From NCBI GenBank assembly GCA_963676915.2, contig CAXXVK010000072.1, positions 32,001 through 96,000 on the forward strand: DNA of 64,000 nt, given 5' to 3'. Both the position numbers and the translations under genes were made by a program. Below, in pieces: positions 24,400 through 24,565 of the stretch (position 1 is the stretch's first letter; each line of letters begins with the position of its first letter). The stretch is from Myxococcota bacterium. GTDB lineage: Bacteria > Myxococcota_A > SURF-8 > G963663525. The notes beneath the pieces are model-generated. The model made no database searches, was not told where the DNA came from, and was given only the letters and a program-made list of their open reading frames with translations.

Positions 24400-24565
24400 A
24401 CCCTTCCTTGCTCATGCGGGCTCATCGGTGTACAATGGCCCTAGCGACTGTTCGGGCTTCCCGGACAAAACGGGCGGCGGATCCAGCTACACACGGGTTG
24501 AAAAACCCAAGGTCGGGACGATCTCGCCGCCCGATGCTCCCTGGGCGGCCGCCCAGGGAGCATCA
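24400..24565 (-). ncRNA. Predicted IS110 bridge RNA (5' hairpin, target-binding loop, donor-binding loop)
   Basis: Perfect 32-nt palindrome at 24533-64. The stem CGGGCGGCG/CGCCGCCCG encloses the guides TCCCGACCT and GTGTAG. A second loop encloses ACAGTCGCT and GCAAG. The guides match the insertion site and the element end junction. Confidence 0.85.

Follow-up and report, generated by a model that had tools for sequence, protein, structure and literature searches.

The window analysed here is a stretch of 64,000 nucleotides from a Myxococcota bacterium (GenBank assembly GCA_963676915.2, contig CAXXVK010000072.1, positions 32,001 to 96,000 of the forward strand). On its minus strand it carries an insertion sequence of the IS110 family, whose leader, upstream of the recombinase gene, can be read as a bridge RNA with four guide segments. 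Along this strand, a doublet of repetitive extragenic palindromes (REPs) runs into ..GCCCGAC-CT, and the element then starts with TGTATGATC at 24615. At its right end, ACAGTCG (23450-44) is followed by the core CT (23443-42) and by AC (23441-40). We placed the element at the CT core present on both sides because a paralogous REP doublet without insertion, at window 47887-47954, reads GCCCGAC-CT-AC-TAC, and we set the boundaries where the flanks of the copies diverge. An alternative boundary, in which the constant CTAC would belong to an element ending in ..ACAGTCGCTAC, was rejected, as uninterrupted REPs read CCCGACCTAC. The two ends, TGTATGATC.. and ..ACAGTCG, are not inverted repeats. All features are listed in Table 1.

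The element, its copies and its recombinase

The genome (5.18 Mb in 74 contigs) holds six full copies of the element at 99-100% identity, along with a fragment of the right end at the edge of a contig, and the REP flank has many matches of 25-35 nt. When aligned, the six copies differ at four single bases, and in addition the window copy has an extra A and copy L005 a GG insertion; the first 223 nt, which constitute the leader, are invariant in all of them. The CT core stands on both sides of the element in 6/6 copies, with ..GACCT immediately 5' of TGTATGATC in each. The left flank is CCCGACCT in five copies and ACGGACCT in one, and all seven right flanks in this genome read CTAC and diverge beyond it. 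Five of the six insertions lie within REP hairpins. The remaining one, L006 (G000:C53), occupies the off-consensus, non-REP site ACGGACCT, with two mismatches to the guide.

The REP family has the consensus TGTCGGGCaAgAAATTtGCCCGAC-CTAC and frequently occurs as doublets, both in the window (24618-24681 and 47887-47954) and genome-wide. Free CCCGACCTAC sites number 133 in the genome, against 11.5 expected from base composition, and the base preceding them is G in 92, A in 39, T in one and C in one. The partner arm GTCGG is found upstream in 141 of 176 CCGACCTAC sites. By sequence, the natural target appears to be the 3' arm of the REP hairpin followed by CTAC, and this REP family appears to be the element's target pool.

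Profile searches of the window copy match PF01548 (DEDD_Tnp_IS110, 91.1 bits) and PF02371 (39.6 bits), both above cut-off, with the PF02371 tail carrying on in another frame. Over residues 1-236 of 310, the window copy agrees fully with the intact protein; the extra A then breaks the frame. The frame is open in four sister copies, L002, L003, L004 and L006 (the listed open reading frame (ORF) of L003 has 321 amino acids, or 310 counted from the second ATG). Consequently, the frame repair that the first-pass annotation of this DNA, made from the sequence alone, had foreseen for a recombination assay is unnecessary. L005 (G000:C22) carries its own frame-breaking insertion, the 2-nt GG at about element position 962, and private insertions of this kind are thus present in two of the six copies, reflecting either ongoing inactivation or homopolymer assembly errors. 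Collapsed contigs of sequencing runs X1, X3 and X4 are one letter short at 23684-23687; in the likely source run, this corresponds to the intact form that most copies have, and it is not decisive for the extra A of the window copy. Programmed +1 frameshifting at AAA-AGG was rejected because the other copies are simply one A shorter there and have an open frame. With its frame broken, the window copy would depend on its four intact sisters.

Over its whole length, the intact protein can be aligned with the transposases of ISCro4 (PDB 9t56, E 7e-36) and IS621 (PDB 8wt6, E 4e-30), and residues D7, E51, D93, D96 and S232 fall within the conserved motifs GID, ME(S/A)TG, KTDxxDA and (D/E)SG. In a collection of 5.8 billion proteins, one cluster at 95% identity is followed by proteins at 61-62%. 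Among species-representative genomes, the best non-self matches reach 61% (two genomes of the same order), 54% (two more) and at most 43% elsewhere in the phylum, and 25 of 401 such genomes, the window's own included, yield E 1e-40 or better. Further relatives, at 40-52% identity, occur in metagenome-assembled genomes (MAGs) labelled Caldithrix, Planctomycetota, Phycisphaerae, Desulfococcaceae and Gallionella. The 95% relative (runs X2/X3, protein P0001) belongs to a second organism from another study, in which a contig is ~95% identical over 23440-24561; it does not enter the comparison of guides below.

The probable leader RNA and its guides

The leader extends over 223 nt up to the ATG and comprises a 5' hairpin, a target-binding loop and a donor-binding loop. 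The outer stem of the target-binding loop pairs CGGGCGGCG (24533-24525) with CGCCGCCCG (24479-24471). The predicted fold has an energy of -107.8 kcal/mol (z -5.18), and none of 200 shuffles is as stable. For conservation, we used 12 leaders from elements at 40-61% protein identity. From these, RNAalifold recovers the outer and inner stems of the first loop with its inner hairpin, as well as the CCC/GGG stem of the second loop and its inner hairpin with the bulged A. When a hand-written structure of 28 pairs is counted on the trimmed alignment, 90.9% of its cells are paired, versus 30-46% with partners slid by 1-3 columns. Both sides have changed in 11 of the 28 pairs, and in helix 1, the stem of the target-binding loop, in 7 of 13; the observed values are reached by 0/500 column shuffles. 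Some 13 G-U cells fit the minus strand only and would be A-C on the opposite strand, and we therefore take the minus strand as the RNA strand. A 5' hairpin of at least 10 pairs that ends at the start of the first loop is present in 6 of 9 folded leaders, with unrelated sequences; two of the others fold otherwise, and L031 has no 5' hairpin.

A covariance model, suggested by the first-pass annotation as a check on the fold and built from the 12 leaders, bears it out. It finds one match in the window and, in 21 of 22 loci outside the training set (33-43% identity, E 2e-13 to 5e-5), a full-length match directly upstream of a recombinase gene. In the window's own genome, it finds the six copies and two weaker loci.

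These weaker loci, G000:C27:18617-18742 (57 bits) and G000:C22:28592-28722 (32 bits), lie on minus strands and are not followed by an IS110 recombinase gene; about 550 nt on from the former is a 411-amino-acid ORF beginning MPKILPEPYRIKVVEP. Both may be either decayed relics or RNA-only loci. A decayed solo remnant, L008 (G000:C60:183797-183883), consists of a REP doublet and the first ~56 nt of the left end, is 88% identical, and stops where the 5' hairpin would start, with unrelated sequence after it.

To decode the guides, we took the rules given in PMC11208160 and PMC11208158. As described there, left guides repeat the top strand of the left half and the core over 8-9 nt, and right guides give the reverse complement of core and right half over 4-7 nt (PMC11208160). 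The right donor guide of IS621 is described as discontiguous (A157-U158 / C162-G165, with G161:dT12 and with U159-U160 flipped), and each right guide as being followed by a two-base handshake guide that pairs with position 7 of the non-cognate DNA (PMC11208158). Our re-reading of the minus strand agrees with the first-pass annotation in every coordinate of hairpins, stems, loops and guides, and likewise returns its reconstructed target, GCCCGAC-CT-AC, and its element ends, with left flank ..GCCCGAC, core CT (24617-16) and TGTATGATC from 24615.

The annotation had counted an 8/9 match between the left target guide, UCCCGACCU, and the target with its CT core. The match itself holds, but its length probably has to be revised. 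In fact, CCCGACCU (24517-10) matches 8/8 at five of the six sites (8/9 if the first U is counted). The first base, U 24518, matches none of the six insertion sites and only 1 of the 133 genomic sites, and it is retained as U in relatives with other targets; for these reasons, we read it as probably a linker, leaving a left target guide of 8 nt with an 8/8 match. The right target guide, GUAG, was correctly identified as the reverse complement of the CTAC seen in all seven right flanks. A longer version, in which the GU 5' of GUAG would call for CTAC-AC, was rejected: AC follows in 0/7 flanks.

The 9/9 match of the left donor guide, ACAGUCGCU, to the right end was likewise reproduced. The guide matches exceed what chance would give: among 20000 dinucleotide shuffles of the 224-nt leader, a 9/9 right-end match arose once and a left-target match of at least 8/9 arose 670 times, and the two never occurred together. 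For the right donor guide, the annotation had proposed GCAAG, complementary to the left end with one G:T pair. This complementarity stands; the full guide, however, reads as the discontiguous 9-mer AU-GA-GCAAG, in which CAAG pairs with CTTG, G forms the wobble with T, GA is looped out, and AU pairs with AT of CT-TGTAT. Both the looped-out pair and the G:T are as in IS621.

Applying the published handshake positions to this sequence yields one candidate in each loop. C 24486 of the target-binding loop would fit donor position 7 (G) and not target position 7 (C), and G 24406 of the donor-binding loop would fit target position 7 (C). Neither base fits its own cognate DNA, and neither varies among the relatives examined.

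Table 1. Features of the element and its flanks (window coordinates).
Feature	Position	Strand	Basis or remark
First REP hairpin of the doublet, GTAGTAGG-TCGGGC..GCCCGA-C	24652..24681	-	upstream of the insertion
Second REP hairpin, 3' arm GCCCGAC = left target (LT)	24618..24640	-	sequence; REP consensus
Left copy of the CT core	24616..24617	-	6/6 copies
IS110-family element	23444..24615	-	1172 bp here, 1171 bp in intact copies, core not counted
-10 box TATGAT in the left end	24608..24613	-	promoter only with the right-end -35 box after circularisation
5' stem-loop, 13-14 bp, loop GGCC, perfect 32-nt hairpin	24533..24564	-	sequence and folding
Target-binding loop	24471..24533	-	outer stem 24533-25/24479-71, bulged A 24524, inner stem GAUC 24523-20/24483-80
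Left target guide UCCCGACCU (DNA TCCCGACCT)	24510..24518	-	CCCGACCU 24517-10 = LT top strand and core
Inner hairpin of the target-binding loop, GGGTT-TTTC-AACCC	24495..24508	-	helix 2; folding and alignment
Right target guide GUAG	24487..24490	-	reverse complement of core and right target (CTAC), 7/7 right flanks; within GTGTAG 24492-24487
Candidate handshake guide of the target loop, CU	24485..24486	-	C 24486 fits donor position 7 (G), not target position 7 (C)
Donor-binding loop	24401..24457	-	stem CCC 24456-54/GGG 24403-01, inner hairpin 24441-24418, bulged A 24422; helices 3 and 4
Left donor guide ACAGUCGCU (DNA ACAGTCGCT)	24443..24451	-	9/9 to right end ACAGTCG and CT
Right donor guide AU-GA-GCAAG	24407..24415	-	interpreted by the IS621 pattern (PMC11208158)
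Candidate handshake guide of the donor loop, GA	24405..24406	-	G 24406 fits target position 7 (C)
Recombinase ORF, first frame, 277 amino acids	23559..24392	-	residues 1-236 as in the intact protein, then out of frame
Run of four A (three in the other copies), frame-breaking +1 insertion	23684..23687	-	this copy only; copy alignment
C-terminal part of the recombinase, other frame, stop TGA 23461-59	23459..23683	-	Transposase_20 tail; intact L003 ORF
-35 box TTGACT, overlapping the stop codon	23457..23462	-	TTGAC conserved in relatives' right ends
Left donor ACAGTCG, terminal part of the right end	23444..23450	-	read from the sequence; copies and relatives
Right copy of the CT core with right target AC	23440..23443	-	7/7

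The joined ends of the element would also assemble a promoter. In window 23444-23461, the non-coding right end is only 15 nt long, and the recombinase stop TGA (23461-59) overlaps the junction -35 box. In a circle, a spacer of 17 nt, counted by hand as 13 nt of right end plus CT plus TG, would separate TTGACT from TATGAT. Relatives show the same arrangement of -35 and -10 boxes in their right and left ends. In the integrated context, a promoter scan of 23380-24760 returned no sigma-70-like site. Promoters rebuilt across the joined ends are described for IS110 circles (PMC11208160), and a 2026 paper describes the RNA as weakly expressed from integrated IS621. Among the contigs of four runs, a clean circle junction was not seen. 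One contig joins 23458 to 24561, but it is diverged and has only 20 letters on its shorter side; we rejected it as a deletion form or circle and attribute it either to the decayed remnant of the left end at C60 or to chance.

Covariation of guides with flanks and ends in relatives

Covariation of guides with targets and donors, which the first-pass annotation had proposed to look for among homologues, is observed in relatives at up to 61% protein identity. In two genomes of the same order, G054 and G030, the guide UCCCAUCCU is found with the flank GCCCATCCT at 6/6 sites, and in a third, G012, UCCCGACCU is found with CCCGACCT at 5/5. The right flanks in G012 are CTAC in four of five, the fifth (L077) having the off-consensus CTTC in its place. 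In G042, the guide UUCCGACCU accompanies a variant REP arm, GATCGACCT, with 6/8 at the site, and the Desulfococcaceae element carries UUCCGACCC at (G/A)TCCGACCT. Relatives with the right target guides GAAG or AAAG have the flanks CTTC or CTTT. The more distant L058, L060, L061 and L073 follow the same pattern, with 8/8.

Several relatives have longer right target guides. L036 combines the left target guide CUCACCCU at TTCACCCT with AUCGAAG at CT-TCGAT (7/7). Its donor guide, ACGGUUGCU, matches the right end ACGGTTG-CT (ACGGTTGCT) 9/9, with two changes relative to the window on both sides. L031 has UAAGUAG at CT-ACTTA, also 7/7, and a poor left match. In the L032 group, AUUAAAG stands at CT-TTAAT in three of four right flanks, and the fourth reads CT-TTAGT.

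We also scored each 8-nt left target guide against the 230 nt upstream, a test that requires no boundary. Elements with duplicate guides (L047, L048, L039), one truncated element (L057) and three with no left boundary within 230 nt (L032, L034, L035) were dropped, leaving 25. The mean score is 6.72 in the element's own flank versus 5.73 in the flanks of others; 8/8 is reached in 6 of 25 cognate versus 4 of 600 non-cognate pairs, and none of 20000 permutations reaches the observed mean. These relatives are not independent, so that the permutation figures overstate the significance; we therefore take the result as support and not as a probability.

L032 and L034, from two contigs of one MAG, carry the left target guides GUUGGACCU and AUGACCCCU with a common right target guide. 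Together with L035, they have more than 330 nt in common upstream of the RNA, within which the left boundary was not found, and all three may be longer elements.

Interpretation and relation to known systems

The element is very probably an IS110-group insertion sequence that works like IS621, with a bridge RNA. The recombinase domains, the two-loop leader, the covariation, the CT core and the junction promoter all agree with the class that the first-pass annotation had assigned. Transcription of the leader, binding of the RNA by the recombinase and recombination are what we infer from this anatomy. The excised element would form a circle, which would join the -35 box of the 15-nt right end to the -10 box of the left end, and transcription of a leader RNA of about 200 nt would begin at this junction. 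This RNA would fold into the 5' hairpin and two internal loops, the second of which would use ACAGUCGCU and AU..GCAAG to address the element's own joined ends, ACAGTCG-CT-TGTAT. The DEDD/serine recombinase, together with the RNA, would then align circle and target and recombine them at CT.

Several observations weigh against this explanation. The recombinase of the window copy is frameshifted, and position 1 of the left target guide is matched at none of the six sites. The 4-nt GUAG is not significant alone and takes its meaning from its position and from the covariation in relatives, and the second handshake position pairs in neither loop. Some relatives match their cognate sites poorly in the left guide (L031 5/8, L046 6/8 at the site, L068 5/8, L054 5/8). 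Since the leader is invariant within the genome, the covariation is drawn entirely from elements at 61% protein identity or below, with the non-independence noted above. Rfam 15, searched over 23300-24800 with E up to 1, returned no family on the RNA strand.

The window copy could be a dead or non-autonomous relic in which the extra A is real, no recombinase is made, and the guide matches go back to an active parent and no longer serve at this locus. We give this nearly, but not quite, an even chance. Five of six copies lack the one-base insertion, the protein stays in frame for only 236 of 310 residues, L005 has another, 2-nt insertion, and decayed leader-like relics without a recombinase gene occur elsewhere in the genome. 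However, the leader and both ends are the same as in the four intact copies, and because of this identity trans-mobilisation is possible; moreover, the extra homopolymer base could be an assembly error, a point on which the collapsed contigs, showing the shorter form only, are not decisive. We note that a relic at this locus qualifies the bridge-RNA explanation and does not replace it.

A reading without any RNA guide, by contrast, we hold to be very improbable. It would make the leader a mere 5' untranslated region or a set of protein-binding DNA repeats, the 9-mer a subterminal recombinase site and the 8-mer an acquired REP fragment. The donor 9-mer is indeed a direct DNA repeat of the right end, and REP-like sequence is abundant in the genome. 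Yet the helices are maintained through changes on both sides, with G-U pairs that fit one strand only, and the target-like segment changes with the flank in relatives that have other REPs (GCCCATCCT, TCACCCT, GTCCCT and others). Furthermore, the right guides do not repeat the DNA but are its reverse complement, which is what an RNA needs to pair with the top strand, and no GTCGGG partner arm stands beside the 8-mer in the leader. Elements of the IS1111 type carry their guide RNA downstream of the recombinase gene. An element of this type, with a seekRNA encoded there, would share the recombinase superfamily, but we find the idea barely credible here: at the right end, stop codon and core are only 15 nt apart, and a structured two-loop RNA precedes the gene.

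Beyond the bridge-RNA explanation itself, the genome could harbour a currently active, REP-homing bridge recombinase of a little-sampled lineage, with the frameshifted copy and the C27 and C22 loci supplying or titrating guide RNA in trans. We consider this combination unlikely. Its design would be compact, with left and right target guides of 8 and 4 nt, a right end of 15 nt and a -35 box over the stop codon. If it holds, the genome contains a small network of autonomous and RNA-only partners.

The comparison with IS621 of E. coli rests on the protein alignment with PDB 8wt6 and on published text (PMC11208160, PMC11208158) because a distant-mode blastn search of the element against 5,426 E. 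coli genomes found no match. In both systems, a DEDD and serine recombinase of similar length is accompanied by an RNA encoded in the leader, which comprises a 5' stem-loop and separate loops for target and donor; its left guides follow the top strand and its right guides are reverse complements. As published, IS621 also shares the CT core and the right target guide GUAG of 4 nt, and its target, printed as ATCAGGCCTAC, likewise ends in C-CT-AC (PMC11208160). The discontiguous 9-nt right donor guide with its G:T pair (PMC11208158), the REP-type targets and the promoter rebuilt across joined ends (PMC11208160) are further likenesses. In contrast, the proteins are distant (E 4e-30), and the left target half is CCCGAC here and TCAGGC in IS621. 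The left target guide is probably 8 nt here and not 9, within the published 'eight or nine' (PMC11208160). Donor position 7 is G here and the target-loop handshake base C, the leader measures 223 nt to the ATG, and the 15-nt non-coding right end has its -35 box over the stop. The first-pass annotation had given ACAGTAT-CT-TGTAT as the IS621 donor; the word ACAGTAT has no occurrence in the published main text, which thus does not confirm this string.

By sequence, the closest solved structure is the ISCro4 transposase (residues 3-301 aligned), a distant relationship. ISPpu10 of Pseudomonas putida, another IS110 element, is described as having all its insertions in copies of a single intergenic repeat that bears a GC-rich stem-loop on the 5' side of the paired site (bioRxiv 10.64898/2026.03.19.712850). 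Similarly, five of six insertions here are at the 3' arm of a REP hairpin, with L006 outside a REP; the likeness is one of description. Also close are the elements of the same order (G054, G042, G030 and G012) and of the labelled MAGs. These have the same leader architecture, donor ACAGTCG-CT-TGTAT and -35/-10 arrangement, and in most of them REP-type targets ending CT-AC. They differ in protein (40-61% identity) and in their left target guides (CCCAUCCU, UCCGACCU, CUCACCCU), and some have right target guides of 7 nt.

The class and its decoding rules have been in print since 2024, with 5,511 target-RNA and 2,201 donor-RNA pairs (PMC11208160), as have large-scale covariation and the ranges of guide length ('eight or nine' and 'four to seven' nt). 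Computational work of that year decoded orthologues of this sort by the thousand, and the known mechanism is unchanged by this finding. The element or close kin may already be in the orthologue lists of Durrant et al., or may be catalogued otherwise. The first-pass annotation had proposed an orthologue with a different natural target, and this view is upheld. Apart from the 95% cluster, the nearest distinct recombinases are 61-62% identical. As judged from sequence, no characterised recombinase is close to this one, and the half-site CCCGAC appears to be its own. The bridge RNA can be decoded fully from sequence, with four guides, candidate handshake bases, a junction promoter and a natural target pool. 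It adds a naturally validated guide/target pair, CCCGAC-CT-AC, with 133 sites in the host genome, from a lineage remote from E. coli; orthologues of this kind are candidates for genome-editing toolkits. Six insertions, five of them in REP hairpins, also provide natural data on mismatch tolerance, with one two-mismatch site here and one CTTC site in a relative.

Next to the element, its right flank adjoins the end of a 182-amino-acid ORF (window 22852-23400, plus strand), and further on, at 22463-22792 (plus strand), a 109-amino-acid ORF has a helix-turn-helix-like sequence.

Two sub-threshold Rfam matches concern the leader region. A weak match of mir-341 to the 5' hairpin lies far below the gathering score and was rejected. 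On the plus strand, at 24396-24542 and thus antisense to the leader, sX15 (RF02234) scores 30.2 bits (E 0.01; gathering threshold 55 bits), and its aligned consensus contains complements of the right-target-guide and left-donor-guide regions. In a Xanthomonas paper, sX15 and asX7 are described as complementary and plasmid-borne, with 10 homologues in a Stenotrophomonas chromosome (PMC3300014). As a lead only, this description would fit an IS110 leader.

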